From NCBI GenBank assembly GCA_965235115.1, contig OZ249436.1, positions 7,194,001 to 7,258,000 on the forward strand: a stretch of DNA of 64,000 nucleotides, read 5' to 3'. The first letter of the stretch is position 1, and every line of letters begins with the position of its first letter. The notes below the pieces were generated by a model, which was not told the DNA's origin, ran no database searches, and was given only the letters and a program-made list of their open reading frames with translations. Position numbers and translations under genes: made by a program. The DNA comes from Laetmonice hystrix. Taxonomy: Eukaryota. Below are positions 11,735 to 35,207 of this stretch, piece after piece.

Positions 11735-11766
<32 letters not shown>

Positions 11767-13458: not shown

Positions 13459-13464
13459 AATAAA
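13459..13464 (+). promoter_or_regulatory. Candidate distal polyadenylation signal (AATAAA) for the FAM13 gene
   Basis: AATAAA followed ~35 nt later by GT-rich TATGTTATGTGTTCTGTTT, at the end of a long AT-rich, repeat-poor tract. Another AATAAA occurs near 9794. Needs transcript data. Confidence 0.3.
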
Positions 13465-14054: not shown

Positions 14055-14060
14055 TTTAAT
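14055..14060 (-). promoter_or_regulatory. Candidate polyadenylation signal (ATTAAA) of the GPx gene
   Basis: First poly(A) hexamer downstream of the candidate SECIS on the minus strand. Confidence 0.4.
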
Positions 14061-14126
14061 GTTGGCGTGGTCAACAAGACTAAAGCGCCACCTGTTGGTG
14101 TAATGCACTGGTAACACCGCCAGGTT

Positions 14127-14200
14127 CTGCTAAAAATCGAGACTGTGTCGCCCCCTGCTGGGGTTTCTGGCAAGTCCGTCAAGACGCTTGTTTTGAACAG
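14127..14200 (-). promoter_or_regulatory. Candidate SECIS element (type 2) in the GPx 3' UTR
   Basis: Minus strand reads CUGUUCAAAA caagcgucu UGAC GGACUUGCCAG AAA CCCC agca GGGG GCGACACAGUCU CGAU UUUUAGCAG. Quartet UGAC (14181-14178)/CGAU (14139-14136); AAA 11 nt after the quartet; apical CCCC/GGGG mini-stem; helix II GGACU/AGUCU; helix I CUGUU(C)AAAA/UUUUAGCAG. Lies ~80 nt after the stop codon. Folded by eye. Confidence 0.72.
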
Positions 14201-14277
14201 GAAAATTGAACTGCATTTTTCCAAAATATCGCTTGGTATATAGAATTTATAGTAAGTTATATATTTTTTAATCTATT

Positions 14278-17200
14278 TTAATTGGGTCCACCATGATTGA
14301 GTAGGTCGCTTAAACGTGGATGTGTGTCGGCGGGGACTTCGTTACGGCTTCTTTCCACGTTTTGCAGAGAAGCGGCGGCTGTTTTGGGGGAGGATTCCAT
14401 CGCTAGTTCTTTGATGTCATCATAAATCTTCATAGGGTCAACTGCCGGGTAGTATCGCTTCCTAGGGTGGCCATTCTTGTCGATGAGAAACTTCTCGAAG
14501 TTCCACGTGACATCGGACTGCTTGACGGGTGACCAGTATATGCCTTTAGTCGCGACAATAGTTTCAGTTGTCCCTGGGCACCAACTCTGTTAAAACACAA
14601 TCCGAAATCATATAATTATAACGGAAAGGCAATATAAATGAATTGTGGCTAAGGGAAACACTTTATGGCTTCCTATCTATCATTAACAGTAGGGCGTCGG
14701 ATCTGAGGTTATCTTAAACAGCTTGGATCGGGACACGGACCAACCATGCAGATATTCAGAGTTGAGGCCCAAGTCAGCCAATAGATAATTATGGACCATT
14801 ATCGAAAATATGGGTCATCAATCTATGTTAAAAGAAGTAATCCAAAGGAAACGAAGAACATTATTTTATGAGTCTCACTGCTTTACTGCAACAGTTGTAG
14901 ATCTAAGCATAACAGTTACATTACATTAAATCAGTATTGTCAGGGGGTTTTTTTTCTCTTTTTTTCAAAATCAGGTCAATTCTTTGGGGGTGGGGGCTGC
15001 TAAGTGAAACTCAGCCCCTGAACCTCTAATATCAGGGGCATGGCTCCGCGTGTTCCAATGCCCGTACAAAATAGGCCTAGACCAAAAAGGTGCATGACCT
15101 TGATTTGACCTTCGAAGTTGGGAAATGTCAAATTGTGCTAAACGCTCTGTAATGGTCAGTCATCTCGACAGCACTGTTGCTGGGGATGATCCTACCTTAA
15201 GAAACGTAAAGAGTGGATGTTCTGAAGCCCCGTTGACATCCACTTTTTGTGTGATGCTAAACTTGGGAACGTATCCCCCGCCTGGCCTCACGTATTTGTA
15301 GCCGTTCAGCAGCTCCTCGTTACGACCTGGTTCTTGTAGTAAAAAGTTGTTGCAAGGGAAGCCAACCACAGCAAGGGAATCCTTTGACAGTGTGGCCTCG
15401 ACCTTGTCGATCAGTGCATTAAAACTTCTAAAGTTGGTCCAAGTGCCCCCTGCAGAGAGAGTCCATGTTTAGACAGTTCGAATAGGCTTATACACTCTGT
15501 ATATCGAGATGTCTACCTATATCAGGGGCGGATCCAGGAATTTGGAAGGGGGGATCCAACACGATTAATTCAGAAAGCTCTATGAAAAAAGTGAGAATGA
15601 CACCAAACGATCCCCAATACTGTATATATCCTACATAGCAACGTGTTAATGATTTTAGCCCCCTCCCTCAGCAGTTGGTTTGGTATAGGCCTAAGAGTTA
15701 GCATGTCTATAGCCTCTCCCTCTCCCTGGACACACCCACTCCGAAACACACTTCTACATCACTCCCGACGCTAAGGGCTGTGTCGGTCATTTACCTCATG
15801 AACCTGGAGTGTAGGAATATTACACAGATAAACAGTTTGTTATTTGATTGGCTTTCTGGAGGAAGTTTATCTCGTTATTATTACTGGGATAGGTACCTAA
15901 GGCCTGTGTGCATTACGGGGCAATGGTTTGTGTGGGGCAAATGGCCGAGTGTCGGGTTAGAGAACTATCTGTGGGGCACAGACTGATTTACAGCCTCCTG
16001 GGCCCGGTTCACAAGGAAAGTCAAGTCAAATTTAATTAACTTGAAACCCATTTTAACCAATCAGATTCAAGGAAAACTGACTTCAAGTTAAGTAAAATGG
16101 ACTTGACTTTCCTTGTGAACCGGGCTAACGTGTCCGATCTGCTCGACTCGAATATAGGCCTATAGGTTATATATAAACGAGCCAAAGCCTTTTTTCTAAC
16201 CGTTTAGGCTACAACAGGTCCCATGACTAGACAAATGTGACAGTTATATTCTTGCCTTAATCCGGGTGAAATACTAGCGACAGGATGCATGCCTACTATA
16301 ACCCCTCAATTAACGCCACTGACCCCTGGGTTCCAGTGACCGTAATGTGGCATACTATGATACTCCGGCAATTATAGATCAATATCGAAAGTTACATATA
16401 TAGGGTAACACTAAAAAGGGGAGGGAACTGAACGGTTGGCAGGTCGCCGGCCTCCTATTGACTGTAACCGGACAAAATAATGCCTGAAATATAGTCGGCC
16501 AGACGACTGACTTTTTCACTGTGTTCAGGCGTTGACATCACACTCGCGCTCCCTCGGACTTCCCGTACATTAACTTTGTGTATGTTGTATTTCCGTAACT
16601 GGCGCCACCTGGTGAGTAGGCCTACATACGTCCATGCCTTCGTGAGATTGAACTATAGGAATCCGACTATAGGGGACCCCCCCCCCCTCCCAGGTCTGAA
16701 GTTGGAGGGCCAGCATTATACCCCCCCCCCCCCCCCAGCTCAAACAGCAGAAGAGAGTTTTAATGAACACTCGTGAGTAGAACACGGGCCCGTAGCTATA
16801 GCGGGCCGGGGGCAGCTCCCCCCTTGTGAAGCCCCCGAAAAATGTATTCTAGGCCTACTTTAGGCCTAAAGACTGGTACAAAACCTTACATTTTGTTCCC
16901 AGATGCCAGGAAAACGCGTATTTGGCACTATAATTTTCACATTTTTGTATGGGGGAGGGCCCAGAACCCCGCTCAAGGCTCTGCGCCTTCGATGAAGATG
17001 GGTGCACCCTTTCCCAATTTCCGCGATCACCTCTGACTGACCTCCCAGTAAGAAATGTCTAGCTACAGCCTGTTAGCTATACCACTCCGCAGATATCACT
17101 GGGTAACCCCCGCCCCGCCTCTCGAACATGTGTGCCTGATATCGGCCCCAATAATTCTGTGCTATATCTCTATAATATATAGTATGGAACACGCCACGTT

Positions 17201-17708
17201 CCTGATGGTAAAACATGCATATAAAACGTTAAAACCCCTCCATGCATGTTGGAGAGCTACCACACTTAGCCCGGCTGGGATAGGCTAGAATCTATACCAA
17301 ACCCCTCCAAAAATTATTTAGCACCTTCCGGAGAAAACAACCAAATCGACTGCATGTTGAGTACATAGGCCTAAAGCATTTAAGAAAATCTCAACCCACC
17401 AAAAAAAGACATTTCTCTCAGCCTTCCAGCCCGCTGAGACGGGGTTGATGGTATTGGCTAATTAAGTTTCGTCCAATCAAAAACCTGACTTGATTACCTC
17501 AGAAGGTGGCCACGTTGGATACCAGGATAACACGCCCCTTGTAGTCGGCCAGGGAGATGTTCTTAGACCCGTCGACTAGCGGGGCCGAGAACCCATAGAC
17601 ATCCTTGTCCGTGTCGGTGCAGGCTGACTGCTGGGCCCTGACGACCACGGCCGCCAGGAGCAGTGAGGCCGCCACGGTGGCCGGCCACCGTCTCCACGCC
17701 TCCATCAT
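14278..17708 (-). CDS. GPX: Selenocysteine-containing glutathione peroxidase, secreted GPx3-like (257 aa)
   Basis: Exons 17708-17498, 15449-15196, 14586-14278 (774 nt, GT-AG, phases match). N-terminal hydrophobic signal-like segment (ATVAASLLLAAVVVRA). Motifs SNVATF-U(TGA 17501-17499)-GGT, VVGFPCNNFLLQEP, YVRPGGGYVPKF, KVDVNGASEHPLFTFLK and WNFEKFLIDKNG give an intact Sec/Gln/Trp/Asn tetrad. Confidence 0.95.
16001..16125. mobile_element. MITE with long terminal inverted repeats, in GPx intron 1 (possibly PIF/Harbinger-type)
   Basis: GCCCGGTTCACAAGGAAAGTCAAGTC ... GACTTGACTTTCCTTGTGAACCGGGC is a perfect 26-bp inverted repeat with further imperfect pairing inside. No clean TSD; superfamily is a guess from the GGC terminus. 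Confidence 0.8.
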
Positions 17709-17754
17709 CACGCCACTGACTCGTCGATCTGACTCTGGATCCCGGCACGAGAGG

Positions 17755-17761
17755 TTTTATA
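17755..17761 (-). promoter_or_regulatory. TATA box of the GPx gene
   Basis: TATAAAA on the minus strand in a GC-rich context, 47 nt upstream of the ATG at 17708. Confidence 0.6.
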
Positions 17762-18139
17762 CCCGCTAATACCGACGCCGGCTGATGGCTGACCTCTGGT
17801 CTACATACCCTATCAACCACTTGTAGGTCCCTATACGATTTGACATCATGCGCTATAAATAGATCAGCACCCCTTGTGATGGTGTTAGGGGGAGGGGAAA
17901 AATCGATTAGCCCTAAAAAAAAACTCGCTCCACGCAGGACACTTACCCCCACCCCCTTCCTAAATCCCGAATCCGGCCCAGATGTGCAGGCCGGCGGTAT
18001 CTGAACATAATAATATGCCTATTGTGTTGGCATAGAACAATGCCCACCTGTAGGCACTGAAGTTTCTTCTAAATAGGTCGTACATTATTATTGGTGCTTA
18101 ATCAGAGGAAGTATGGGCGTAACCAGATAAATTGTAGAC

Positions 18140-18320
18140 CAGGGACGGATCCAGGTTTGCGCCAACGGGGGTGGGGTTGTGGGGTGCCAAGGGGGCGGGC
18201 TGTGGGTGTGGTGGGTGTGTATGTTTTGTGTGAACCTTTTTTAAAGCTGGAAAAAAGAGAGATTACTTCGTAACGGGGGTTCAACCCCCGTAACCCCCCC
18301 CCCCCTTAAATCCGCCACTG
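18140..18320 (+). mobile_element. Non-autonomous TIR element (CAG...CTG ends); diverged sister copy inverted at 22965-23103
   Basis: Ends CAGGGACGGAT / ATCCGCCACTG. Internal ATTACTTCGTAACGGGG and CCAGGTTTGCGCCAA recur reverse-complemented in calpain intron 2. Confidence 0.65.
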
Positions 18321-18405
18321 TATGCCCATAAACGTAGGCCTACATGAACATTGATCTCCAAAATAGGTCGATATATTTGCTGGAGGACAGGCAGGCCGAT
18401 AAGGA

Positions 18406-19031
18406 AGAGGTGTATAATGGTCGGGATAACGTGTGCCATCGACCTGTACGGAGAGGTGTATATATAATGGTCGGGATAACATCTGCCATCGACCTGTACG
18501 GAGAGGTGTATAATGGTCGGGATAATGTCTGCTGCCATCGACCTGTACGGAGAGCTGGTCGGGATAACGTGTGCCATCGACCTGTACGGAGAGGTGTATA
18601 ATGGTCGGGATAACGTCTGCCATCGACCTGAACAGGATTTTTGCATTTCGCGTCGACCTGGCTGGCCTGGCTGGCCTTCCCTGTTTACGGAAATGAGTTC
18701 CATCCTTTAATCTTAAAAGTAGTCAAATAAAAATGTGATGTCACAATCGCATGGACGTCGCAAGGAAAATCGCAGTATAGATCTACGTCTGCCATCGACC
18801 TGTACGGAGAGGTGTATAATGGTCGGGATAACGTCTGCCATCGACCTGTACGGAGAGGTGTATAATGGTCGGGACAACGTCTGCCATCGACCTGTACGGA
18901 GAGGTGTATAATGGTCCGGATAACGTCTGCCATCGACCTGTACGGAGAGGTGTGTAATGGTCGGGATAACGTCTGCCATCGACCTGTACGGAGAGGTGTC
19001 AATGGTCGGGATAACGTCTGCCATCGACCTG
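18406..19031. repeat. 46-bp minisatellite in two blocks (18406-18631 and 18786-19031) separated by ~155 bp of unique sequence
   Basis: Unit GAGGTGTATAATGGTCGGGATAACGTCTGCCATCGACCTGTACGGA, ~5 copies per block. Both blocks end in CATCGACCTGAAC. Confidence 0.93.
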
Positions 19032-19310
19032 AACCGGTATATTGCGCTTACATGCACCCACCCCTTCTGCGTGTTATGGCTTATACTGCCGGTGTGCCGC
19101 CACCAGGAACTGGTGTACGAGTTATCCGCAGATAAAGTACTCTGTGTACAAGATATTATATGCGACATCACTAACGCAGTGAAACCGAAATACGCGATTC
19201 CAGTAGCTATTTACACAAGTGTCCAGCAAATCTTCCCGAAGGTCCCACAAGATATGGAGGGCCTATACGCTGCACGTAAATATCAATAAACAAGGCATGT
19301 GCACGGGGTC

Positions 19311-21387
19311 GTTTGTCTCCAGTGTGGGCAGTGTGCGGTGTTAGCGGGAGAGTTCTGGTCAACCTTTATACCATCTAACACAGATAGGCCTATATCTGTT
19401 TGTCTCCAGTGTGGGCAGTGTGCGGTGTTAGCGGGAGAGTGGTCAACCTTTATACGATCTAACACAGACAGGCCTATATCTGTTTGTCTCCAGTGTGGGC
19501 AGTGTGCGGTGTTAGCGGGAGAGTTCTGGTCAACCTTTATACCATCTAACACAGATAGGCCTATATCTGTTTGTCTCCAGTGTGGGCAGTGTGCGGTGTT
19601 AACGGGAGAGTTCTGGTCAACCTTTATACCATCTAACACAGATAGGCCTATATCTGTTTGTCTCCAGTGTGGGCAGTGTGCGGTGTTAGCGGGAGAGTTC
19701 TGGTCAACCTTTATACCATCTAACACAGATAGGCCTATATCTGTTTGTCTCCAGTGTGGGCAGTGTGCGGTGTTAGCGGGAGAGTTCTGGTCAACCTTTA
19801 TACCATCTAACACAGATAGGCCTATATCTGTTTGTCTCCAGTGTGGGCAGTGTGCGGTGTTAACGGGAGAGTTCTGGTCAACCTTTATACCATCTAACAC
19901 AGATAGGCCTATATCTGTTTGTCTCCAGTGTGGGCAGTGTGCGGTGTTAGCGGGAGAGTTCTGGTCAACCTTTATACCATCTAACACAGATAGGCCTATA
20001 TCTGTTTGTCTCCAGTGTGGGCAGTGTGCGGTGTTAGCGGGAGAGTTCTGGTCAACCTTTATACCATCTAACACAGATAGGCCTATATCTGTTTGTCTCC
20101 AGTGTGGGCAGTATGCGGTGTTAGCGGGAGAGTTCTGGTCAACCTTTATACCATCTAACACAGATAGGCCTATATCTGTTTGTCTCCAGTGTGGGCAGTG
20201 TGCGGTGTTAGCGGGAGAGTTCTGGTCAACCTTTATACCATCTAACACAGATAGGCCTATATCTGTTTGTCTCCAGTGTGGGCAGTGTGCGGTGTTAGCG
20301 GGAGAGTTCTGGTCAACCTTTATACCATCTAACACAGACAGGCCTATATATGTTTGGCTCCAGTGTGGGCAGTGTGCGGTGTTAGCGGGAGAGTTCTGGT
20401 CAACCTTTATACCATCTAACACAGACAGGCCTATATATGTTTGGCTCCAGTGTGGGCAGTGTGCGGTGTTAGCGGGAGAGTTCTGGTCAACCTTTATACC
20501 ATCTAACACAGATAGGCCTATATCTGTTTGTCTCCAGTGTGGGCAGTGTGCGGTGTTAACGGGAGAGTTCTGGTCAACCTTTATACCATCTAACACAGAT
20601 AGGCCTATATCTGTTTGTCTCCAGTGTGGGCAGTGTGCGGTGTTAGCGGGAGAGTTCTGGTCAACCTTTATACCATCTAACACAGATAGGCCTATATCTG
20701 TTTGTCTCCAGTGTGGGCAGTGTGCGGTGTTAGCGGGAGAGTTCTGGTCAACCTTTATACCATCTAACACAGACAGGCCTATATCTGTTTGGCTCCAGTG
20801 TGGGCAGTGTGCGGTGTTAACGGGAGAGTTCTGGTCAACCTTTATACCATCTAACACAGATAGGCCTATATCTGTTTGTCTCCAGTGTGGGCAGTGTGCG
20901 GTGTTAGCGGGAGAGTTCTGGTCAACCTTTATACCATCTAACACAGATAGGCCTATATCTGTTTGTCTCCAGTGTGGGCAGTGTGCGGTGTTAACGGGAG
21001 AGTTCTGGTCAACCTTTATACCATCTAACACAGATAGGCCTATATCTGTTTGTCTCCAGTGTGGGCAGTGTGCGGTGTTAACGGGAGAGTTCTGGTCAAC
21101 CTATACCATCTAACACAGATAGGCCTATATCTGTTTGTCTCCAGTGTGGGCAGTGTGCGGTGTTAGCGGGAGAGTTCTGGTCAACCTTTATACCATCTAA
21201 CACAGATAGGCCTATATCTGTTTGTCTCCAGTGTGGGCAGTGTGCGGTGTTAGCGGGAGAGTTCTGGTCAACCTTTATACCATCTAACACAGATAGGCCT
21301 ATATCTGTTTGTCTCCAGTGTGGGCAGTGTGCGGTGTTAACGGGAGAGTTCTGGTCAACCTATACCATCTAACACAGATAGGCCTAT
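19311..21387. repeat. 87-bp minisatellite, ~24 near-identical copies
   Basis: Unit GTTTGTCTCCAGTGTGGGCAGTGTGCGGTGTTAGCGGGAGAGTTCTGGTCAACCTTTATACCATCTAACACAGATAGGCCTATATCT. Produces the 604-aa (+) and 582-aa (-) repetitive ORFs. Confidence 0.97.
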
Positions 21388-21644
21388 CTATATGTTCAAT
21401 GTATAATATAGGGATTATCAATCAATACCGAGTTCTAATTAAATTTAACAATGAGGATAAAGAGCAGTATTGTATTCTACGGCAGGTACTAGCCAGATGT
21501 TTCTACTTAACGAACGCTATACTCTAAATGCAGTTTACCATACACTACCATATCAAAACATACGTGAGAATACACGGTCCTGTAACAAAATGGCATTTGA
21601 TGAGTGCAAGACTAATTATTAAAAAAACATAACATGATAGTTCG

Positions 21645-21868
21645 CTGGCTGAGAGCAAGAATAGCGCCTATTGTATCTGCAGAAATTGAAAAATGGGTTT
21701 AATGGAACATTAAGTAGGTCTCATGAATATACGCATCTGTGCAGCTATATTGTATCCTGTACAAAACAGTTAAGGTGGTATAATAAGTTGCAGAGTATTG
21801 TATCTCCATAAAATATTTTGCACTTTATTTTGCAATTTTGCACTTACGATTTTCTTGCTCTCAGCCAG
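21645..21868. mobile_element. MITE-like element just upstream of the calpain start codon
   Basis: 17-bp perfect inverted repeat CTGGCTGAGAGCAAGAA / TTCTTGCTCTCAGCCAG, extendable imperfectly by ~6 bp outward. Confidence 0.7.
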
Positions 21869-22139
21869 AGAATTGTCTATGTAGGTTGTAGGACTAATAG
21901 AACATGACTCCCCGGCATGTTGCTGAGGACAACCGACTCTCTAAGGTATAACTATGTCACTTGTTTCCCTGCTGACTCAGAACAGATATTGGGGGAGACG
22001 AGGGAGAGGGTAAAAACCCCCCTTTGTATATTCTATGTTCCCGGACCTAAGGAAAGCAGAGAACTAAGCGCCTGGGTTATACTTCTCTGAACATTTACTG
22101 GGAACGCCAACTGCCGATAACAGCCGCCTCTTCGCAAAC

Positions 22140-25100
22140 ATGGCGAATTTCGTCAATATCAAAACCGATCTCATCCTCAACGGTCAACTTTACGAGGACA
22201 ATGATTTCCCTTGTGTGCGTAGATCGATGTTTTACAAACTTGATGAAGACGACGAGGACCAGGAGACTTTGCTAAACAGGGTGATTTGGAAGCGTCCAAA
22301 GGTAGGCAATGGCAGGGAAGTATTTATAGCTCACTTCCAGTAACTTCTAATGCTGGAGGGGTGTATACACGTATTCTATGAGACTTCACCTGTCTGGACG
22401 CACATAGACACGTCTCTATACCGATACCATAATCACATATCCCGTACCCTGGTTTCTCTAGAAAAATATAGGGCCTATGAAGATGTAGTGGAAATATGAA
22501 GCAATTTCGCTGGTCTATATGCCCGTTTTGATTTAAAACATACTTTATTACACTATAAATCATGCAGGTATATTATAGTATATTGAGGACAGGAAGTATA
22601 TACAATAAACAGTTTCATTTTCCCCCCACATTTCCGTGGTAGCATCACAACAAATCATATTAGCCTCGTACAATACAATAAACAGTTCCACTGGCAGTGC
22701 AATATAGCAGTATGGAAAGGGTATAGTGTTAGTGTTTATCGACAAGAACAGCACGCCTGTTTTATGTAAATTAAGATTGGTATTCTGAATAATGTTTGGC
22801 CACAATTTTACAGGATATTGTTAATGAACCTCGGTTCATAGTCGAGGGAGCCAGCAAAAGCGACTTCTGCCAGGGTAAACTGGGTAAGTTTCATCCAACT
22901 TTAATAAGTTGTAAAGTTATGCGCGCAGCTCACACAGCATTGACTAATCTTAATCTTATAAGTCCAGTGCTATTGCGGATCGGGGAGGAGGTTACGGGGT
23001 TGCACCACCCCCGTTACGAAGTAATTTTTCCCTTTTTTCTCCTTGAAATATTCAAACCAAACATACACCCCCCCCCCCTTGGCGCCAACCTGGATGCACC
23101 CCGGAAACCCTGTTTACAATATAATTCCTACAGGTTATAATAGAGGTCTATGCCGGATTATCAGCTCTGATGGGCGTTTTTGTTTACAATGACATTAATA
23201 CAGGTCTATCTATACAGGTATAGGTCTATGCCGGATTATCAGCTCTGATGGGCGTTCTATATTAATATAGTTTGACTTTTAGATATACAACACAATGTTA
23301 CCTTATCATGTGACCTCATCCACGAGAGCCTTCCTCTGTCACACTATATGGGGGGCGGGTCACGGGTCACCACCCCCCCCCCCCCCACACACACACATGA
23401 AAGTGTAGCTATAGGGGAAATCGTTAGACTAACCCTTTATTGATGTATAACGTTAGTTTCAAAATTCATTTTTAGAGGAGGTTCGTTACCCTTTTCATGG
23501 CGGGCGTCGAATTTCAATTAATGGGGAACTCCATGCACCCCCCCCCCCCCCACCCAATCTAAGAATGAGATGCTCACATTTTCGAAAAAGTGCCTACATC
23601 ATATGCCCTTCTTGCCACCAGACCCGCAACCACTACCAAAAATGTTTCCCCAACCGTCCTTGCCACCTTCTCACTATCCTTACCAGAGGTATCATCATTC
23701 CAACATTAACAAATGTCGACTGGTTATCGTCTGACTGTTGACAGGAGATTGTTGGTTCCTGGCGGCTGCCGCCACGCTCGCCACCCGTCCCCTTCTCCTA
23801 AAACGGGTTGTTCCTCACGACCAGACGTTGAAGGAAGGAGATTACGCGGGAATATTTCACTTCATGTTCTGGCGGTATGGGCAGTGGGAGGAGGTTGTCA
23901 TCGACGATAGACTTCCTGTGGACAGTGACAACGACGAAATGCTCTTCGTTTGCAATAAACGCCAAAAGGATGAATTCTGGGCAGCCCTGTTAGAGAAGGC
24001 CTATGCCAAGTAAGTTAGTACGCCCCCTAAATAAAGTAGTACGTATATATACGTCAGAACCTAGGTTACCCATACCCTGATAGGGAATCTTCTTATATCA
24101 AAAACAGCCTTTAATTCATCAAAATCAGTCAAGCGAATCAAAAGTTATGCCGTTTTGGGTGGAGCACAGTATTTGCCTCTATTTACAGTGGCCAGTTCGC
24201 TGTCAGATAATGAGATCTGGCTAATGAACTAGGGTGTGACTCAATACCACACCTGGTTTGGCGTGGACATTTTGTTGAAACACCCTGTATAGGCCTATAG
24301 TCTGGCAGTTATACTCCTCAAGTGCCAGTCTAGAGATGTGTGATTTCTGACAGATGTAAACCTATATTAATATTCTGATATTATCAATAAAACTGTACAT
24401 TCGCCAAGTAAGCCGTAAGGTGGTTTCTTTCTTTCTTTTCGGTTCGTTGTTGGTTTTTTTTATTGTTTTTCTGGTTGTTTTTGTTTAATTGGTATTGACC
24501 CGTTTAAAAAAGGCCTATTCCGTTAACTTGTAAGCGTGCAGTATTTTCCCCTTGCTCAGCTCTTCCCTCCTCTCGCCGTCTTGCACAGGTTACACGGGTC
24601 CTACCAGGCTCTGTCAGGAGGACTTCCCCACGACGCTCTCGTCGACTTTACTGGCGGTATTTCTGAGTTCGTCTATCCGTTACCACAGGAAGAGGAAGAA
24701 CGCGTTGCGACTTTTGGTCGTCTGCTCAGGTTGCAGAAGATGCACACCCTTATGGCATCTGGAGTCTTCGTGAGAGTTGCTTCCATATGCATGTTGATAT
24801 TAGCCTAATTGGTAGGCCTATTTTATTTCGTTATTTCATACCGATGAGTAATCTTTGTTACTTTAAATGTTATGGATACTGTATGATATGTGGGACTCAC
24901 ATATATATTCTACTGTGATACTTTCTTTACAATACCAAAATCGTGTTATTTGGACCTTGACATTTTTCATGTAATTTTAGGTCCACAAGGGCAAGGAACG
25001 CGAGACCCGTTTAGACAACGGCATTGTCACTGGGCATGCGTATAGCATCACAAGGGTCATGGAGGTCTGTAGGAACGAATAAGGCCATCATTGAAACATG

Positions 25101-28100
25101 CATAATTTTATCAATTTACAGAATCATAGGCCTACCGGTAAAATGATAAAAAATTGATCTGTACATGTATGCAGTGAGGTTCATGCATATCGTAATGCGT
25201 TCCTGCCTGTGTCATGTATAGGCCTATAAGGTTGGCGGAATCATGCGTTACTTCTCTGAGGAGTATGTTTCATATTTTTGAAGAGTGAGTTTCTCATGCA
25301 AGGTTCCCCTTTCATTTTCTTGTTCCTATTGGCAGACAAAGATCAAAGGAAAGGCGGTGCGACTGATCTGCCTTCGGAATCCGTGGGGACAGAAGGAGTG
25401 GAATGGCGCTTGGTGTGACGAGTAGGTGTCTCACCATGCACACGAGAACTGTTGACGAACCAAGAGACGAGTACATGACCTTTTTTTCTCAAATGGGACT
25501 TGCGGACATTTCCAAATGTTGAATTGTTTGGGGGTGATTCCAGTGCATTGGAGAATAGTAAAATATGTTTGTATTTTCTTATATGATTTCCCGACTTTAC
25601 ACTTTCGTTTTCTCGACTCTTCACTTCCGATTTCTCGACTTTTCACTTCCGTTTTCCCGACATGTCACTTCCGTTTTCCTGACTTTTCACTCCCGCTTTC
25701 CTGACTTTTTTGCATTTTGTTGAAAAAAGTCGGGAAAATGAAAAACAAAATCAACAAAATGCAAAAAAGCCAGGAAATCCAGGGATGTCAGGAAGTGAAA
25801 ATTCAGGAAAAACGGAAGGGAAAAGTTGGGAAAACGAAAGAGAAAAGTCGGGAAAACGAAAAAAAAAATTTGCATGTCCTTTCCCAGCCACCGTAAATAC
25901 TCCACTATCACCGTAGAATAATGTTGGCTTATTTACCCAGTTCCACAGAATGGAAGGGCATCAATGACCAAGAAAAGAAGAAATACTGTCTCGCCAAGGA
26001 CGATGACGGTGAATTTTGGCAAGTATCCATCACAGCTAAGAGTAAGCTTTAGTGGAGCTTTACATTCCCATTATTCAGTCCCGGCTACCAATACGCTCAG
26101 ACATTCGCATGAGAAATTCGCATGAATCGCTGTAGTGGATTTGCCATTCGCAAGAGAAATTCGCATGAATCGCTGTAGTGGATTTGCCATTCGCTTGGGA
26201 TTCGCATCAGTCGCAACATTCGCACGATCGCATGTGTCGCATGAGAATTTCAATGCGAATATCGTCGCCTTGGTGGATCTATAGCCCATAAGAGTTTGTG
26301 CCAATGTCCATCGCATCGGGACTTCATTACCAGGCGATTCAGTTGTTAAACTGCGCGTGCGCAGTGCGAACCCTCTTTTTCGAATCATCGAAATTACTTT
26401 CGAATGCAACGGATGAGATCAACCCCCTCTTCACCAGTTGGTGAAATCACTCCGGACCATTGATCGATTGTATTCTGGTGTTCATTCTGCGTCTTCTATT
26501 GCAGGATGTCTTTCAAGGATTTCATACACAACTTCGACATGTTGGATATATGTCATATGGGAATAGAAGATGAGTCTGGAAAGGTATTAAACTGCTCGCG
26601 CTCACTCGTCAGATACACTTGTATAGATTTAATTCCAATGATTGGAACTGAATCGCGAACAGAGCGACATATTGTTCTCGTCTGTGATACAATATTATTA
26701 TTCAGACTGTTTGTACAATATACAATTCGTGAGGTTGCGGAAAGTCAAAGGTATAGGAATGTCGCTTTTAAAATCCAGCGTTTCTCCTCTCTTCCTTGTA
26801 GGTCGTTAAGAAGCCCTGGGTTATGACGTCATATCATGGGGCTTGGGTCGAGGGCGTGTCTGCAGGCGGTTGCAGGGTCAAGGAGGAAACTATACGTGAC
26901 TATTAACAATTGATTTTTCTATAATTGAGGCAACTGAATCATTACAAACTTGATATGGGATCTAACTGCATCTAACGGAGAGACTATAATTTATTCTCGG
27001 CCTACATGACGTGGCCATTTGAAATCTCAGTCACTGAAGACAGAGCGGTAGATCGTTTAACACTTACGGTAATTTTATCACTTTATATCTTTTCATACGC
27101 AGTTCCCCAGGGCGATGAGACCGGTAGGTATATTCATTCCAAACTTTCATACAGTACATATGTCTCTTTATATTCATCGATGTCCACGGTGGCGAGGGGA
27201 CACGCTTCCCGCTTTCTCCCCCTGAAAAAGATGACAGAGGCATGCTTTGTGCACATTATAACCTTCAGCAGTTGAAGTGAACATGATATTGGAGTAATTC
27301 ACCAAGTGAACTGTACAGTTAATCTTCGATCAAATGTAATCCATCTGACCCGTGCAGATACGTACTGGAGTAACCCTCAATACCTGCTGAATGTCACTGA
27401 CCCGGATCTGGACGATGACGAAAACAAAGCCACCTTGGTGGTGTCCCTCATCCAGAAATATGGCCGCAAGTGGCGCACAGTGCTCGAGTTAGACCGCAGC
27501 ATTGACAACTACATGGGCTTCGACCTCCTCAAGGTGGGCGACATGCGGAGCCTACACGCGCCTATTTTGTCAACTTTATATGTTATTGTATCTGACATTC
27601 ATCTATTTTACAATTTGTGAATTTATTGAAGAATATAACTTAATTAAATATGACGTTCTGTCAAGGTCAAGGTTTCAAGGATTTAGGTTGAGATGGCATT
27701 GTCCTATAAGCAGATCAATTTTGATGAGGGTCTACCGCATTTCTCTCCCCCAATCTGACTACCTAGGCTATGTGTAAATATACCCCTAAAAGGGTTCTCT
27801 TATTCGGCTCCTGATCTTAGTTCAAAAAGGAGGATGCATTGACGCTACTTTCTGGGAGCGCTGTGGATGTAGCAGACCGCATACAGTCCATCGAATGTAA
27901 GGCCCCGCGTCCCTACAGGGAATCGTCTGCTGTGTTTCGCGTCACGCCCGGCGTCTATTGCATCATCGTGTCGTACGGCCTTCCCGGCCACCAGGGGGAG
28001 TATCTGTTGCGGTTTGCCACTGAGAACAAAGTCACATCAGCGTAAGGATGCGCTTCACACTTTATGCGCTAAGTACATATTCTTGTTGAAGACAAAAAGA

Positions 28101-31100
28101 CTAATGTTCATTGCTAGCCCTCGTCTATCATTGTTCTATGATATTAATTGGGAAGAAGTGTAGTATATGGATTGTTTGTGTGTTATGTTCTGGAAGAGTA
28201 TAGGCTACGCCAACCATAAATATCGTTTTGTGGTATAAAACGATATTTATATTACTTTAATCCCCCACTTAGATCTACCTGCCCTATTCCCGAAGTGGCC
28301 GAAAATTGTCTAAGTTCGAAAAGGTACTACATTAAGCCGCTTTCACATGCATACGGTGTGCGGCATGCGGCGTGCGTTTTGTTAATAATGTAACAAATGT
28401 AAATCGCTGCACGCCGCACACCGGAGACATGTGAATGGTTATATCTATTTTCAATTGTTCCATTTTTTGCAAAAACGCACGCCGCACACCACAAACCGTA
28501 TGTATGTGAAAGCGGCTAGTTAGGGGTAACAACCGATAACAGAACAGCCCTATCAAAACCATGTCGGGTATCTTTTTGAATAGGACATGCTGAGTTGTTG
28601 CGTCAGTATTTCAGACGGTTCCATGGCTGTTCCATCCATTGCTCTCCGACCCATTCAGTATTTATAGGGATTTCTGGACTTTGAAATTTTATGCGCTCTG
28701 GAATAGGACAGGTAAGTGGGGATAGAAGTATTTGTAACAAACTCATGACATGACACCCCTTTCTCCTTCAGGGAAATCGACACACCAACTCAAACAAGCC
28801 TGGTGAGTTTTGCCAGATGTTATGATCGTTGTGACCGGTTGAAATAGGTATGAGGCATATAACTTAAGTCGAGACTGGGAATGAAGAAACATAAAATTAT
28901 CACAGCCACATCCAAATGTCACTGGTGTGCGATACGTCCGGTAAACCGTTGTTATTGGTGTATGATAAATACACCCTTAGCATGTAGGCTTTCTTCATGT
29001 ATGAACGCTGATTTTCTTCAGATGCTGCGCCAGAAAGCCAATCTTTTCCGGCGTTTGTTCAACCAGCACTGTGGCGGCGATGAATGTGTGGATGCCGTCG
29101 AGCTTCGGCAGATGCTTAATGGCGGTCTTATGAAGGGTGAGTTGAACTTGCCACTATCCACCACCTTTTACACAGAGTGATAGGGCCGTAAATAGCCAGG
29201 CTGAGGCAGGGGAGGCAGTCGCCTTCTCTGATTCTAGGGCAGTTAGATCTAAGTATGAGCCGCAAAAATTATAATAGTATACCCCCCCCCCCATAGAGTC
29301 ACTTGTGTAAAACTCCCGGTCCTGGACCGTGCTTGGACTGGACTGGACTGGACCAGTTGGTGACGGGACTGGACCAGTTGGTGATGGGACTGGACCAGTT
29401 GGTGATGGGACTGGACCAGTTGGTGATGGGACTGGACCAGTTGGTGATGGGACTGGTGATAGGGGCCTTCTGGTATATATATTCACGGCCATCTTAAAGG
29501 ACCAGTGTATTCCTTTGAACGCCCTATTGGCCCCCACTGTTGTGTACATCCGCACAGAACATAGTTCCCGACATCAATTCCCGAAAAATGAATTGTAGCC
29601 GCAGGTACAACTAGGCCGCATAGTAAATAATATTACGTGCATTATTTGAAACATCTAAATCATATTTTAGTGTGATATAGGTGAGCGGAGTAGGTTATGA
29701 AACCGACTTGGGCCGGATATCCAGGGGGCGCCACCCTCTCCGACGCGAATACACTGGTCCTTTAAATGAGGCAAACAAGGGCGCGAATAGAGGACCAGTC
29801 CTATAAACCCGCCTGGAGTCCATAACCGGTAGTTTTACATTACTCACATAAGGCGGGAATACATTTCCAATTCGATATAGGTTTGTCCCATTGCACTGAT
29901 AGACCTCTACCCCCCCCCCCCCACCCCCCCCACCCGGGTCGTCAGAGTTGCCTACCCAAACTATCTTATTTTTCGTTTTACTTAAAGCGACCGTCTCGTC
30001 CTTCAGCTTTGTGCCATAGGCTTCTATCCTAACGGTCGATGTGCTATTTATAGACGTCAGTTCCTATGCTGGCCAGCCTATCGCACAACGCTAAAGGACG
30101 AGACTGTCGCTTTAAACCTATATTTAATTTAATGTGATACAAGTCTCTGTGAACTTATTTTTTGTTATTTCAGGGAAGGAGGTGATTTCGAAGGAGACGT
30201 GTCGCATATTGATCTCAACCAAGTCGGTATCCTTTATCTTTCTGCGCGCATGGAGAATGCTTTACTTAGACACTGGATTCTCATGACCTATGGGTATAAA
30301 ACCACACGCGAGAATGAGTGCATAGATAGCCTGTTGTAGATAGACCTACCTGTCGGTGAGACCTTTTCCAAACATCTAAGGTCTTGTGAATTGCAATAAT
30401 GAAGCAGTTTATTCCTTTGGCGATTCTCAAATATTTTTATGGGATATAGTCTATATATAGGCCTATATAGATTTGCGATTTGTAGTTACTTTCTTTTGGT
30501 CTTGTCCTTAACAACGCATAGTCGTATATCCCAGGCCGATTGGATTATAAAGAAGCGCAAGAACAATGGCGCCTTGCCAAGGATCTGATTGTGGGTAAAT
30601 CCTACCATCATTCGGCTAGACAATTATTTATGTTCGCCTATTGTTATTTATATATTCTAGGCCTTAGCGGCGATAAGGATTTAAAGTCTCCAGCTGACCA
30701 GTGTAATTCTAAGTGTCGTTTTTACGACAGGCCGCCGTTAGGGCTATGCTACATAATACTTGCGTTATGGCATTCTTATGGCATTCATTATTCAGATCAC
30801 CTTTGAGGAATTTGACAAGAACTCATCTGGTTTCATCACTACTGCGGAGCTGATGAAAGGGCTTAAATCTGTAGGTAAGTGAAAAGGCATAGGCATCTAT
30901 GCCTGTACGGGGCCACAGACAGCCAAGAATTGCTAAGGGGCTCGCTACGGTCACCCTTTTATTTTACTGTGATTTGAGACTAAAGGACTAAAGGATGTCA
31001 CCCATTTCCTTAAACAGGGAAGGCCAGCCAGGAAAAAAATCAAAATGATATTCGACCATTAAATGAAAAATCGCATGGCCGTCGCAAGGGAAATCGCCTT

Positions 31101-31931
31101 AACTGGATCAGGCCCTTTAGGCAGTGTAAAATCGACCCGTCCTGAAGCAGTGACAGTTGATGATATCAGAGAGTACTACACTCTCTGATGATATCCCGTT
31201 CCAGTCCTGAAGCAGTGACAGTTGATGATATCAGAGAGTACAACACTCTCTGGTGATATCCCGTTCCAGTCCTGAAGCAGTGACAGTTGATGATATCAAA
31301 GAGTACTGCACTTTCTGATGATATCCCGTTCCAGGTGTCGAGGTGAGCCGCAGGGTGGCGCGGGCGGTTGCCTTTCGATTTGGCGGGAAACGAGCTCATG
31401 TCGAAGTGGACGATTTCTTGCAGTGTGCCTTGAAAATATCTAAACTCAGTGGTAAGTCGGGGCAGTTATTAACGAATAGACTGTATTCTGAGCTAGAAAG
31501 CTCCATCTATACCCTTCTTTAAAATGGATTTAAGTAATCCACTTGAGGTATGGCTCGGTCCACTAATATTTTCACCCGAATGTATTACCAGCCCGTTTTG
31601 TAGACTGGCCCACTATTTGTCTTTCCAGACATATACAATGACATCATCATAAAACCTTCTGCGCGTTTTGGGGACGGGACGCCTTTTATAACACTGGAGG
31701 AGGTATGTAAGTTTGTGTGTGAAAGTCGTACGTATCCCTCCTATATACATGTATATGTATATACGGGGGCTGCTGACGGTGAAGGTGCATGGTCTTTTGG
31801 CGGCTGTGTGCCTGTCATATGAAGGTATGTAATCCACGTATTAGGGTGTGCACTGGTATAGACTACCACTTACTTTTAAGCTTTTTTCTTGGCTCTCTCC
31901 TTAGTGGCTGGAGACGACACTTTTGGTGTGA
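22140..31931 (+). CDS. CAPN: Classical calpain large subunit (CysPc + C2-like domain III + penta-EF-hand), 686 aa
   Basis: 19 phase-compatible exons: 22140-22301, 22814-22883, 23745-24009, 24589-24769, 24981-25064, 25336-25421, 25941-26018, 26505-26583, 26802-26895, 27358-27533, 27821-28041, 28772-28802, 29022-29136, 30174-30226, 30522-30590, 30796-30874, 31335-31451, 31629-31702, 31905-31931 (2061 nt). Catalytic triad QGKLGDCW / GHAYSIT / LRNPWG; also [50 protein letters not shown]-hand [12 protein letters not shown] and terminal EWLETTLLV. Confidence 0.95.
22965..23103 (-). mobile_element. Diverged inverted copy of the 18140-18320 element
   Basis: Shares GGTTACGGGG, CCCCGTTACGAAGTAAT and TTGGCGCCAACCTGGAT with the reverse complement of 18140-18320. 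Confidence 0.6.
25575..25895. mobile_element. Degenerate foldback-type TIR element with short subterminal repeats
   Basis: Left arm of repeated TTTCCCGACTTTTCACTTCCG-like units mirrored by a right arm of GAAAAGTCGGGAAAACG-like units; inner TTTTTTGCATTTTGTTGA / TCAACAAAATGCAAAAAA inverted pair. Confidence 0.65.
26019..26504 (+). other. GC-AG intron (calpain intron 7)
   Basis: The conserved DGEFW|MSF motif requires TG|GCAAGT as donor joined to GCAG|G ATG. No GT donor restores the motif. Confidence 0.88.
28335..28517. mobile_element. MITE with long imperfect TIRs in calpain intron 11
   Basis: AGCCGCTTTCACATGCATACGG...TGCGGCGTGCGTTTT(T)G mirrored by CAAAAACGCACGCCGCA...CCGTATGTATGTGAAAGCGGCT. 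Confidence 0.8.
29335..29460. repeat. 21-bp minisatellite (GGACTGGACCAGTTGGTGATG) ~5.5 copies, preceded by (GGACT)n
   Basis: Direct copies read from sequence. Explains the PVPSPTG and GDGTGPV ORFs. Confidence 0.93.
29498..29761. mobile_element. TTAA-flanked MITE (Kolobok-like AG...CT ends), 264 bp
   Basis: TTAA(29494-97)-AGGACCAGTGTATTC ... GAATACACTGGTCCT-TTAA(29762-65): perfect 15-bp TIR with TTAA duplication. Confidence 0.8.
29986..30111. mobile_element. TTAA-flanked MITE (Kolobok-like AG...CT ends), 126 bp
   Basis: TTAA(29982-85)-AGCGACCGTCTCGTCCTTCAGCTTTGTGCCATAGGCT ... AGCCTATCGCACAACGCTAAAGGACGAGACTGTCGCT-TTAA(30112-15). Confidence 0.82.
30227..30521 (+). other. U12-type (minor spliceosome) GT-AG intron, calpain intron 14
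   Basis: 5' site GTATCCTTT; branch site TCCTTAAC at 30505-30512; AG at 30520-21 with no polypyrimidine tract between; frame is preserved into the 69-nt EF-hand exon. Confidence 0.92.
31140..31334. repeat. 65-bp tandem repeat x3 that ends in the splice acceptor of calpain exon 17
   Basis: CCTGAAGCAG at 31141, 31206 and 31271. Every unit ends CCCGTTCCAG. Confidence 0.92.
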
Positions 31932-31940
31932 CATCGTTCC

Positions 31941-32098
31941 ATAGACCTGGATTTACCTTGGACACGATAACTGGGACGTACTATCAATGTTGCCTGGATA
32001 CTGAGTCTGAGGCCTGGATAGACCTGGATTAACCTTGGATACAATAACTGGGACGTACTTTCAATGCTGCCTGGATACTGAGTCTGAGGCCTGGATAG
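31941..32098. repeat. 77-bp tandem duplication in the calpain 3' UTR
   Basis: ATAGACCTGGATT.ACCTTGGA...TGAGTCTGAGGCCTGG at 31941 and 32018. Confidence 0.88.
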
Positions 32099-32165
32099 GC
32101 CAAGATTATCAATGCAATCCCGAAACTGTTAATGGCTTTATTTGTGGGTATTCCAGCATCAGCAC

Positions 32166-32368
32166 CAGTGCCGGATTTATAGGGGAAAAGGGGTAATTGC
32201 CCCGGTGTCCCCTGCCAGGGGGGGGGGGGCTCTATATAAAAATATAATAAGATGTGTTGGTGATTTGCCGTATACAACACGTAGCCTAAATTGTATTTTA
32301 ATTTCTGTGTATTAAAGGCCCACTGAACCTGAAGTGCCCTGGCCCCCCAAGGTCTAAATCCGGTCCTG
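32166..32368. mobile_element. hAT-like MITE
   Basis: TIR CAGTGCCGGATTTA / TAAATCCGGTCCTG. Flanks ATCAGCAC and ATCAGGAA match at 6/8, consistent with a decayed 8-bp TSD. Confidence 0.68.
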
Positions 32369-33114
32369 ATCAGGAATTCTCATAATCAGTAATGGCAGGA
32401 TTCCGACGGCCTTATACTCAAGCGTTCCGTCCATATGAAGGAGGAAGCAACTCTTGAAAGTTAAGGCCTGTGTTTTCATATATAAGCAGCCTGTTCAAAG
32501 TTTGCAGAAGGCCAAATGGGGAGAGGGCTAATGCCCTATGCCCCTCGCTAAGCCGCATGCCTTCCTTCCAACATTGTCCTCCAAAAATAAAACTTGAATT
32601 GCCTACAGCTAAGAAGCTCTGTAAGTTCTTTGTAGAATTGTTTTAAGCATCGTTGCCACGCTCACATTCGCGCCCATTTGCTGAAATGAACGCTCACAGA
32701 TCCTGCACGGGAGCCTGGGTAAGCCACAGGGGACCAGGCACCGCCTGCCGAACTAGGCCTATTTCTTTTGAGAAGCTATATGGCGGATTTCCCCGTGACA
32801 CTAGCCGAACCGGTGGTTAATCGAAAGACGAACACGCCATCGTAAGTTTAAATAAAGAAATATCACTGCTTGACGCCCCTCTTCGATAGGCCTAGGCCTA
32901 CTTTATGTCACTGGTGTAGTAAGCTAACGAGTGAGGTGGCGCGGATGCTCCTAATCGGGCCTAGATGTCGGCAGTTCCATCATGGCCATAGAGTCCGGCA
33001 GGCACTATAGTGCGCAACAATCTGACCCTTTCTTTCTTTGTCCATCCCCTACCTCCCTCTCTCAATCTCTGTTGTTATACATGATTCTACTAGTAAGGGG
33101 GATAGTCTTTGCGT

Positions 33115-33115
33115 T

Positions 33116-33188
<73 letters not shown>

Positions 33189-33195
33189 TAGTAGT
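33115..33195. repeat. (GTA)n microsatellite, ~27 units
   Basis: Direct read. Explains the poly-Val ORF at 33038-33223. Confidence 0.97.
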
Positions 33196-33199
33196 GGAA

Positions 33200-34700
33200 T
33201 ATCTATCAAGGCGGTTTGATTAGGCAAGGGTCTTGCCAAAGACTGACCGTTCGTTTGACCTTTGACCTTAGGGAGAACTGGGTCCTAGATCGTAAATCGG
33301 TCAAATCCCTACTTCTTCTTTATTTTTTGATAAAACTTGTCAATATTTGGCAAAAGGACTCTCTGACAAGAGCTTCTGAAGTTATCTAAGGATAAGCGAT
33401 TTGACCTATTTTCGCGGAGGCACGTGATATTGAAATTTTTAACAGTGCCCAGTTTAGATATCTATGGCTATAGGCCTAACTCGAAGATGCTTCTCATAAA
33501 GTGTTTATTATTGTACACAAATAGAAAGTGATATGATCTGTCGTTTGGCAACATTACTTTTAAGGATTTGACCTATTTTCGCCGAACCACGTGACCTGCA
33601 GGTTTTAAAGTTAGGTCATTTGGAAGATTCCTGGCTGTAACTATTGAAAGATTTAAGACAGAGCCATAATTGTTCCTGAATACACACCTTGACCAGGACA
33701 AAGACAGGTGATACAATCAGTCATGACGTGACGTCATGACGTCAAACGTGATTTGTCCATTGAGGCCATTTTTTAAGCTCAGATTGAGAATTTCCAAAAC
33801 CCATCATGGTGCTATAATCATGTCATGCTCATGTCATGTCATGCTTAAAATTGAGCCTTCATTTGACCTTTCACCTTGGACCTTTGGCCCAGTTTGGGAG
33901 AACTGGGCCTCACCGTACAAAATTGCTCGAGAATAAGGCCAGTCAGTACATATGTTGAGCTCTCACTGTAATGTTTGCTCGAGGATAAAGCCAGATATTA
34001 CATGTTGGGAGCCCTCACTGTAGTGTTTGCTTGAGTATAAGGCCAGCCAATACATGTAAGGAACCCTCGCTGTAGTGTTTGCTCCAGCCCAACGGCATTC
34101 AATACATATAGGTAGCCCTCACTGTAGTGTTTGCTCCAGCCCAAGGGTAGTCAATACATGTGAAGGGCCCTCACTGTAGTGTTTGCTCCAGTCTAAGGTC
34201 AACCAATACATATAGAGATGTAGTGCTTGCTCGAGTATAAGGCCAGCCAATACATGTAGGGAACCCTCACTGTAGTGTTCGCTAGAGTATAAGGCCAGTC
34301 AGTACATGTGGTGAGCCCTCACCGTAGTAGTAGCTCGAGAATAAGGCCAGACAGCACATGTGGTGAGCCCTCACTGTAGTGTTTGCTCGAGTATAAGGCC
34401 AGACAGTACATGTACAACATGTACAAAACCCTCACTGTAGTGTTCGCTCCAGTCCAAGGGCAGTCAATACACGTGGGGAGCCATCACTGTAGTGTTTGCT
34501 CCAGTCTAAGGCCAGATAGTACATGTTGGGAGCCCTCACTGTAGTTTTTGTCGATTAAGATGTAAATTTTTGGCTTATAGCATTGCAGAATCCTATCTCT
34601 GGGAAGCGCCGCAGGTGCCCGGTATCCCGGCCAGGTATACGTGGTGATTCCATGAGAAGCCGCGAGGTGGCAGAGCTCGCGGCTCTAAAAGGCGTCCTCC
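33200..34700. mobile_element. Possible non-autonomous Helentron-like element with an internal tandem array
   Basis: Short hairpin GGCAAG-ggt-CTTGCC (33223-33237) beside a microsatellite, recurrent TGACCT(T) motifs, a repeated GATTTGACCTATTTTCGC (33399, 33565) and a central 52-bp array. Classification is inferred from architecture only. Confidence 0.4.
33905..34548. repeat. Diverged 52-bp minisatellite, ~12 copies (CCCTCACTGTAGTGTTTGCTCGAGTATAAGGCCAGCCAATACATGT...)
   Basis: CTC(A/G)C(T/C)GTA recurs at 33962, 34014, 34066, 34118, 34170, 34266, 34318, 34370, 34431, 34483 and 34535. Confidence 0.9.
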
Positions 34701-34818
34701 CAAAATTGACATAATATCCTGTCTGGAAGAGTATGCCTATGTGTAGGCCTAATGAAGACACCATTCGTGGTATAGTCACCAATCTTGAATCACTAGGCCT
34801 ATAGCCTGTATAGGCCTA

Positions 34819-35207
34819 CAGTAAAACTCGCATAAGTCGGATTCAAGTGGGCCAAGCGATTTTATCCGAGTTAGCTGAGAATCCGACTTATGTAAAGATT
34901 GTCATTTTTGGATCTTCATGGGAACTATGATAGACGAGTAGTAGATGTCATTAAAACAAACGTTATGCTTATTTGAGCACAAGGTCAACACTGGATAACG
35001 ACAACATCTAGTCAACACTAAACAGAGACGTTTTATTCTAAGAACTACACAAACTCTATCACATTGAACAAAAAGAAAAATAATAATCAGTTTACTCCAA
35101 GAAATCTGTAATTTTGTTTGTTTGAGACAGCTCTCTGTCTGCCTCATCAAAATAAGCTCCACCTCCACAGCGGCGTGATTTAGTCGGCGTTCAACTTCCA
35201 GAAAGGT
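34819..35207 (+). mobile_element. Truncated pogo/Tigger-like (Tc1/mariner) left end
   Basis: TA followed by CAGTAAAACTCGCATAAGTCGGA, with internal inverted echoes TCCGAGTTA and TCCGACTTAT. No right TIR; the satellite begins abruptly at ~35208. Confidence 0.5.

Follow-up and report, generated by a model that had tools for sequence, protein, structure and literature searches.

Insertions of TAGGCCTA at TA in an animal genome, a candidate excision scar of GG-ended pogo/Fot-like transposons

Why should one eight-letter palindrome, TAGGCCTA, recur in the non-coding DNA around two ordinary genes? We addressed this question in a 64,000-nucleotide stretch of Laetmonice hystrix (contig OZ249436.1, positions 7,194,001 to 7,258,000; hereafter the window), located on contig C1 of a 627-Mb animal assembly and holding a glutathione peroxidase (GPx) gene, a calpain gene and an 850-bp satellite. 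An earlier note on this DNA had listed 20 copies of the word and proposed that they are footprints of a TA-duplicating transposon with GGC…GCC ends. Our analysis favors, with a probability of about 0.72, an end-joining excision scar of pogo/Fot-like transposons with GG…CC ends, the donor being one that we infer from sequence comparisons. The note was largely right on the scars, and its donor is corrected here to GG-ended pogo/Fot-like elements.

Counts of the word and its insertion at TA

Every one of the 20 coordinates listed by the earlier note was exact. As it had said, window positions 1-15000 hold no TAGGCCTA, and none of the 20 copies (0/20) falls within the GPx or calpain exon intervals (approximate; 2,621 nt, set by eye). 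The whole window contains 45 copies, namely these 20, another 20 in an 87-bp tandem array and five in the 850-bp satellite. The word is indeed rarely expected by chance: in positions 15001-35000 masked with Tandem Repeats Finder (TRF; 15,928 nt), the 20 copies compare with a dinucleotide-shuffle mean of 0.245 and a maximum of 2 among 200 shuffles. Genome-wide, we counted 168,757 copies of TAGGCCTA; the reversed word, a low control because it holds a CpG, numbers 3,469. Nineteen ten-kb stretches were then sampled; with two motif-rich picks omitted from the unselected counts, the remaining 17 (118 kb unmasked) gave 44 sites against 2.5 expected from a third-order Markov background, and 34 of the 44 stay after near-identical copies are dropped. 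Among the 16 words of the form TA-xy-x'y'-TA, TAGGCCTA ranks top with an observed/expected ratio (O/E) of 20, followed by TAGATCTA (7.5), TACCGGTA (4.2), TAGCGCTA (3.8) and TACATGTA (2.1). AGGCCT with flanks other than TA is not enriched, and the copies of TAGGCCTA lie in many unrelated contexts. A count of doublets (3,141 versus 1) was set aside as proof of repeated insertion, being inflated by the master copy of a CAC-ended repeat. Viral contigs held 50 matches to the doublet, which were of no use here. TAGGCCTA as a genomic scar was not found in our literature search, which covered titles and abstract starts, most subscription papers being outside reach; some of the hits resembled primers or unrelated sequence.

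The second most enriched TA-bounded palindrome, TAGATCTA, was seen 13 times versus 1.7 expected (L006-L024; L003:1670-1685, 2085-2107). Along with insertions of the types TA-TC-TA and TA-GACTC-TA, it may have been left as a scar by an element ending in GA…TC.

The concentration that the note saw around the GPx/calpain region is not special, as the pattern is genome-wide. The distribution is patchy (chi-square p = 3e-6). Its rank correlation with CpG o/e, taken as a proxy for the accessible chromatin to which the note had linked recurrent insertion and excision, was weak and not significant (rho 0.07-0.09), and scar density was 0.53 versus 0.20 sites per kb at CpG o/e above versus below 0.6.

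Comparing empty and filled paralogous repeat copies showed that TAGGCCTA arises by insertion, with the TA duplicated, as the note had proposed, and not by substitution. In the 850-bp satellite, site A is filled with six extra nucleotides (+6) in 3/33 units and empty in 30, and site B is filled in 2/33 and empty in 31. The satellite has a relative, 85% identical, in an array at the start of C1; there TAGGCCTA occupies a third TA in each of the two units seen (L142), and the word is found at unit spacing across about 70 kb. At position 33471, the paralogs of a dispersed repeat are empty (20/20), the filled match is the sole one genome-wide, and high-depth contigs lack the 6 nt. Two sister paralogs of this repeat share another +6 at a different TA, where a third copy has a 7-mer; genome-wide, the inserts between the two TAs of this other site are GGCC, GGCC (the sister copies) and GGC (3/3). 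Similarly, in ten paralogs of the repeat at 34744 and 34794, the first site is filled in 3, empty in 5 and unclear in 2, and the second is filled in 3 (one with a substitution), lacks the insertion in 6 and is deleted in 1. One paralog has a further +6.

The TATA site of the CAC-ended element took 14 insertions genome-wide. Clear GG/CC cores were seen in five, comprising two TAGGCCTA, one TAGCCTA and two stacked insertions, one reading TAGGCTA+TAGGCCCTA and the other TACATGTA+TACCTA. The remaining ones are one TA-GAGGAC-TA, which may be a decayed scar, three extra TAs and five other cores. At one TA in a DD82E-type miniature inverted-repeat transposable element (MITE), the single insertion found (1/1) is of the scar type. 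Repeat-internal scars thus recur at the same or neighboring TAs, which gives rise to stacked scars.

Shorter and longer relatives of the word were also found. The 7-mers TAGGCTA and TAGCCTA occur in the window where the note reported them, with further copies at 5941 and 6271 within a 33-bp tandem. They are weakly enriched, 1.5-fold, in the 17 unselected stretches (16 versus 10.9). In the TRF-masked region 15001-35000 we counted 6 versus a shuffle mean of 1.86 (2/200 shuffles reach 6), and their density is 0.39 per kb in kilobases holding the 8-mer versus 0.10 elsewhere. In line with the note, they too arise as insertions at the same TAs as TAGGCCTA in repeat paralogs. Ten-mers of the form RTAGGNNCCTAY number 4,965 genome-wide versus 2,251 for the control. 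A hand count of the cores in the first 50 places gave 29 GGGGCC/GGCCCC, 3 GGGTCC, 2 GGTACC and 1 GGCGCC; GGGCCC, the 3+3 product, was absent (0).

Candidate donors and the proposed excision

Donor scans covered about 270 kb of sampled sequence and a few transposase loci. No multi-copy TA-GGC element, as envisaged by the note, was present in them, and no word other than the scar recurs after TA-GGC in the 270 kb. Local scans of the same 270 kb for terminal inverted repeats (TIRs) gave no GG-ended TA element; the first two required exact starts and were blind to imperfect TIRs. At the transposase loci, by contrast with the predicted GGC ends, all three DDE_1 loci fetched start with TA-GG (judged by eye), and TA-flanked GG elements start with GGGG, GGGT or GGTA. 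Two of them could be delimited:

Family A: G000:C20:9327060-9330828, 3,769 bp, TA-GGGG…CCCC-TA, TIR matches 20/24
Family C: C13:26832818-26837781, 4,964 bp, TA-GGTAA…TTACC-TA, TIR matches 20/24

For family A, homology begins at that TA in five copies that are 99-100% identical, and TA precedes 6/7 exact 5' ends, the flanks being varied. A degenerate family A TIR (<=3 mismatches) matched 331 ends genome-wide, and all 100 among the matches listed start with TAGGGGAA. These matches include paired non-autonomous copies of 0.5-1.6 kb; the five checked are all bounded by TA-GGGG…CCCC-TA (5/5) in unrelated flanks. Two of the five have a scar <=120 nt away (4 scars in 1,200 nt, 3 of them from one flank), which is no more than suggestive. 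The family C pattern gave 11 ends, of which ten form five pairs and one stands alone; several have an additional G.

The encoded proteins combine DDE_1 with HTH_psq plus HTH_Tnp_Tc5 in family A and with HTH_psq in a third family, B; for family C, DDE_1 was found in the piece scanned, which does not include the N-terminus. The catalytic triad is DD35D in family B and DD36D in families A and C. Relatives of these transposases are animal pogo-type proteins, from molluscs, insects and rotifers where named. By sequence, the genome holds intact-looking multi-copy pogo/Fot-like transposons and non-autonomous derivatives of the form TA-GG(G/T)…CC-TA. Families A and C, like the 5/5 non-autonomous copies, end in the scar bases GG and CC. 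A purine precedes TA on 131/176 scar sides (74%), in 53% of the background and at 20/23 element ends (manual tally), a weak and non-specific signal. The Fot-like transposases L071 and L072 have long in-frame C-termini coded by minisatellites, with a length that varies between copies.

The donors look Fot-like when set beside published elements. Fot/Fot-like pogo transposases carry DDE_1 with HTH_psq and/or HTH_Tnp_Tc5 (Gao et al. 2020, PMC7386202), an architecture matched by the candidate donor proteins. Such elements have short TIRs and a target-site duplication (TSD) of TA, TAA or TAAA, and here TA flanks and a TIR with 20/24 matches are found. Their triad is DD35D, rarely DD36D; family B has DD35D, and the DD36D of families A and C is a point of difference. 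GG-starting TIRs are listed for Fot-like elements in Table S1 of PMC7386202; the GG-ended rows inspected have TAA/TAAA TSDs, whereas families A and C have TA. The long repetitive C-termini of families A and C are another difference from Fot/Fot-like elements. The available text of Gao et al. (PMC7386202) names no animal Fot-like elements; Dupeyron et al. 2020 (PMC7325037), in their section on pogo, mention six oyster sequences. No footprint data for GG-ended Fot-like elements were found in the literature searched.

Other transposases were considered as donors and rejected. Three of the six DDE_3 loci fetched show ends, all CAG-like (Tc1 at L065; DD82E at L066 and L067); no ends were seen at the other three, the element at L068 being longer than the fetched stretch. 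ISL2EU elements (PHIS superfamily) resemble the elements found here in having GG-starting TIRs, a 2-bp TSD and animal hosts, but their TSD is AT within A-AT-T (PMC4482050), whereas here it is TA, including G-TA-C and C-TA-C contexts. They were ruled out on the target site alone, the empty sites being TA in GTAC/CTAC contexts.

The same loci provided several observations apart from the scar. L065 is an intact multi-copy Tc1. DD82E transposases, known as Sailor, with TA-CAGTC-type ends are found at L066, L067 and L068:3012-3301, along with a MITE of high copy number (906 candidates). Multi-copy IS630-like open reading frames (ORFs) occur at L068-L070, in elements that exceed the fetched stretch. 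Finally, tandem arrays of Harbinger-type transposases lie at G000:C12:27.56-27.93 Mb (13-16 kb spacing), C1:26.03-26.08 Mb (7 kb) and C11:22.36-22.37 Mb (6 kb).

How could such elements leave TAGGCCTA? Tc1/mariner enzymes place their cut in the non-transferred strand a few bases within the element, and Sleeping Beauty/Tc1/mariner footprints are the terminal 2-4 nt of the element left by end joining (PMC6943129); Tc1 excision gives non-complementary 2-nt 3' overhangs (PMC4490562). The mechanism that we propose starts from what is shown: GG-ended elements insert at TA, with a purine preferred before it, and have TA on both sides. As in Tc1, the non-transferred strand would be cut two bases inside each end, leaving an empty site with non-complementary 3' GG overhangs, and end joining would fill both to give TA-GG-CC-TA. 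Loss of one base would yield TAGGCTA or TAGCCTA, and loss of two bases on one side TACCTA; if one side were cut deeper, TA-GGGG-CC-TA would result. Indeed, the ten-mer cores GGGGCC, GGGTCC and GGTACC would fit 4+2 products of the observed element ends. The expected outcome is the net +6 at TA that is seen to recur; scars in repeats then multiply as the host repeat is amplified in tandem or copied. Since the third base of the elements is G or T, a constant GG+CC would need a 2-nt stagger, and since many families share GG as their first two bases, one common word would be left, which would explain the dominance of TAGGCCTA. The note's 3-nt overhangs annealing through GC are not supported, the GG elements present starting with GGGG, GGGT or GGTA.

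TAGGCCTA would thus work like a Tc1/mariner footprint, and it passes the sequence-level tests for one. Both enclose the element's terminal bases in a doubled TA, vary in trimming and have a purine/pyrimidine-alternating target. The core differs, being GG+CC here and CAG/CTG or CA+TG in Tc1/mariner. The footprint word of Tc1 is TACATGTA. That of Sleeping Beauty is TACAGTA/TACTGTA (PMC6943129). The about 1.7e5 copies here are read from natural genome history, with an inferred donor.

Sites and neighbors in the window

Three of the 20 sites (33471, 34744 and 34794) are demonstrated insertions, and three others (32754, 32887 and 32893) are not independent, being inherited in the master copy of a repeat; the remaining 14 have neither assignment. 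The 7-mers in the window are candidate one-base-short scars, some of them being chance occurrences. The sites are as follows:

1586 and 32282, strand., TAGCCTA, candidate one-base-short scars
15072..15079, strand., TAGGCCTA in unique DNA of a GPx intron (no paralog of 15000-15150)
15686..15693, strand., TAGGCCTA, GPx intron
15890..15899, strand., TAGGTACCTA, candidate longer scar fitting GGT(A) element ends, a single case
16155..16162, strand., TAGGCCTA, GPx intron
16205..16211, strand., TAGGCTA, candidate one-base-short scar; also at 17281, 27764 and 28201
16617..16624, strand., TAGGCCTA, GPx intron
16850..16868, strand., two TAGGCCTA at 16850 and 16861, 11 bp apart, GPx intron
17366..17373, strand., TAGGCCTA, GPx intron close to exon 1
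18335..18342, strand., TAGGCCTA, upstream of GPx
19311..21387, strand., 87-bp tandem array of 24 units, with TAGGCCTA in 20 and CAGGCCTA in 4
24290..24297, strand., TAGGCCTA, calpain intron
24801..24820, strand., TAGGCCTA (24813) beside TAGCCTA (24801), calpain intron
25127..25134, strand., TAGGCCTA, calpain intron
25219..25226, strand., TAGGCCTA, calpain intron
30458..30465, strand., TAGGCCTA within a (TA)n run, calpain intron
32754..32761, strand., TAGGCCTA inherited in the CAC-ended dispersed element (carried by 20/20 paralogs, one with a substitution)
32887..32900, strand., doublet TAGGCCTAGGCCTA (32887, 32893), inherited in the CAC-ended dispersed element (carried by 20/20 paralogs, substitutions aside)
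33471..33478, strand., TAGGCCTA, de novo +6 at a TA of a dispersed-repeat copy (paralogs empty)
34744..34751, strand., TAGGCCTA, +6 common to a repeat subfamily (paralog comparison)
34794..34801, strand., TAGGCCTA, +6 within a TA run, same repeat as 34744 (paralog comparison)
34811..34818, strand., TAGGCCTA, its second TA abutting a CAGT-starting short repeat (34817-34900)
37970..37977, strand., satellite site A, +6 insertion; copies also at 54887 and 60855 (one event, copied)
40736..40743, strand., satellite site B, +6 insertion; also at 50839

The 87-bp array can be read as a single scar multiplied along with its unit. The CAC-starting dispersed element, whose 5' part lies at 32657-32961, has 1,447 candidates with copies 92-97% identical and a master with three TAGGCCTA; its paralog L043 has a third unit at the doublet TAGGCCTAGGCCTA.

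The GPx gene (14278-17756, minus strand, PF00255) has an in-frame TGA at about 17499-17501, at the end of exon 1 and in the NVATF-U-G position, so its product is probably a selenoprotein. The multi-exon calpain gene (22068-31900, plus strand) has PF00648 in one exon and EF-hand-like late exons. The 850-bp satellite (35200-64000) consists of 33 full units, 97-99% identical to the consensus, with signs of higher-order duplication. It had no match in Rfam, and a 73-nt piece of it recurs inverted at 34604-34676. MITE-like short inverted-repeat elements with other ends, not of the TA-GG type, lie at 16002-16125, 25573-25869, 28335-28517 and 29982-30115.

Competing explanations and meaning

Several observations weigh against excision of GG-ended pogo/Fot-like elements as the source of the scars. 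Nine of the 14 TATA-site insertions have no clear GG/CC core, and a genome-wide search at another defined TA gave no insertion. Ends were inspected at 3/129 DDE_1 loci (the long-ORF group), 6/57 DDE_3 loci and 0/151 DDE_Tnp_4 loci. No right end was found for family B, of which the second copy is truncated. No pair of element and scar alleles at one locus was seen among the indels listed for the three runs of the one sample, whose reads showed nothing on the sites in unique DNA. The excess scars number about 1.6e5 and the known ends a few hundred. A ratio of several hundred to one calls either for elements that stay mobile over long times without gaining copies or for many further GG-ended families. 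The longer scars can be read in two ways, since GGCCCC could be GGCC+CC and would then fit GGCC ends. Finally, another GGCC lies <=30 nt from 34/106 scars (32%) versus 24% of background TAs (p = 0.05), and a nearby GGCC accompanied all of the first four insertion events found.

Some of these points would suit another TA-duplicating element, as yet unseen, whose ends read GGC(C)…(G)GCC and whose self-complementary GC or GGCC overhangs would anneal. Such an element predicts the same 8-mer and 7-mers, annealing would account for the uniform product, the inspected transposase loci are a minority, the 29/50 GGGGCC/GGCCCC cores are readable as GGCC+CC, and L003 does hold one TA-GGCCC…GGGCC-TA pair (17/24 matches). 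The ends of that pair are not repeated elsewhere, however, and the missing recurrent TA-GGC word in the sampled sequence speaks against it as well. TAGGCGCCTA makes up 1/50 of the ten-mers, a number that CpG decay could reduce, and in the part of the pogo table of PMC7386202 that was available, word-start GGC has five matches in two rows (fungal FotA with a TAA TSD, and a degenerate Tigger). GG-ended TA elements, in turn, do exist in the genome, and we regard the GGC(C) element as unlikely.

Two explanations do without excision. Breaks or slips at TA might be repaired with inserts templated from a nearby GGCC, followed by selection for the palindrome; polymerase-theta repair does give templated inserts (PMC4490562), the scars are clustered with several gaps < 100 nt, and the slight excess of nearby GGCC would agree. 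Yet no further GGCC lies within 30 nt of 72/106 scars, and templated inserts should follow their flank, whereas the core is constant and TA exactly doubled. Other TA-xy-x'y'-TA words are also far less enriched (TAGATCTA, TACCGGTA and TACATGTA against the 20 of TAGGCCTA), AGGCCT in other flanks is not enriched, and this origin seems to us quite improbable. Alternatively, the word could be a selected binding site, for example of a zinc-finger factor, accumulating in regulatory DNA. We take TAGGCCTA to resemble the ZFX-type motif AGGCCTAG, and both the clusters at the GPx first exon and in calpain introns and the patchy distribution would be in keeping with this. The +6 insertions arise in satellites and transposon copies, however, where selection is unlikely, and selection would leave the origin of the word unexplained; later co-option of some scars is possible, but as a source of the word a binding site is very improbable.

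For GG-ended pogo/Fot-like elements as the source, the mechanism is of a known kind, while its scale and donor were not found in the literature searched. It is possible, if doubtful, that a GG-ended Fot-like pogo clade has undergone long-lasting hit-and-run transposition in the germ line while its copy number stayed low, each element leaving hundreds of scars. If so, the density of TAGGCCTA would record across the genome, like a fossil map, where the transposase had access in the germ line and how the ends were joined, and excision scars would be a main source of the small insertions found in non-coding DNA. The same origin may hold for the richness in TAGGCCTA/TAGGCTA and the ZFX-like open-chromatin motif calls of other aquatic animals, and excision-scar words can be mistaken for regulatory motifs. 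Families A and C provide intact candidate transposases whose scar is directly testable. Genome sequence does not normally reveal excision, but in this case it seems to leave the commonest non-tandem palindromic word of the sample, so that from one assembly one could read how often a pogo clade excises, which targets it chooses, where it cuts and how the breaks are repaired. The genome most likely holds a very large natural archive of earlier jumps.

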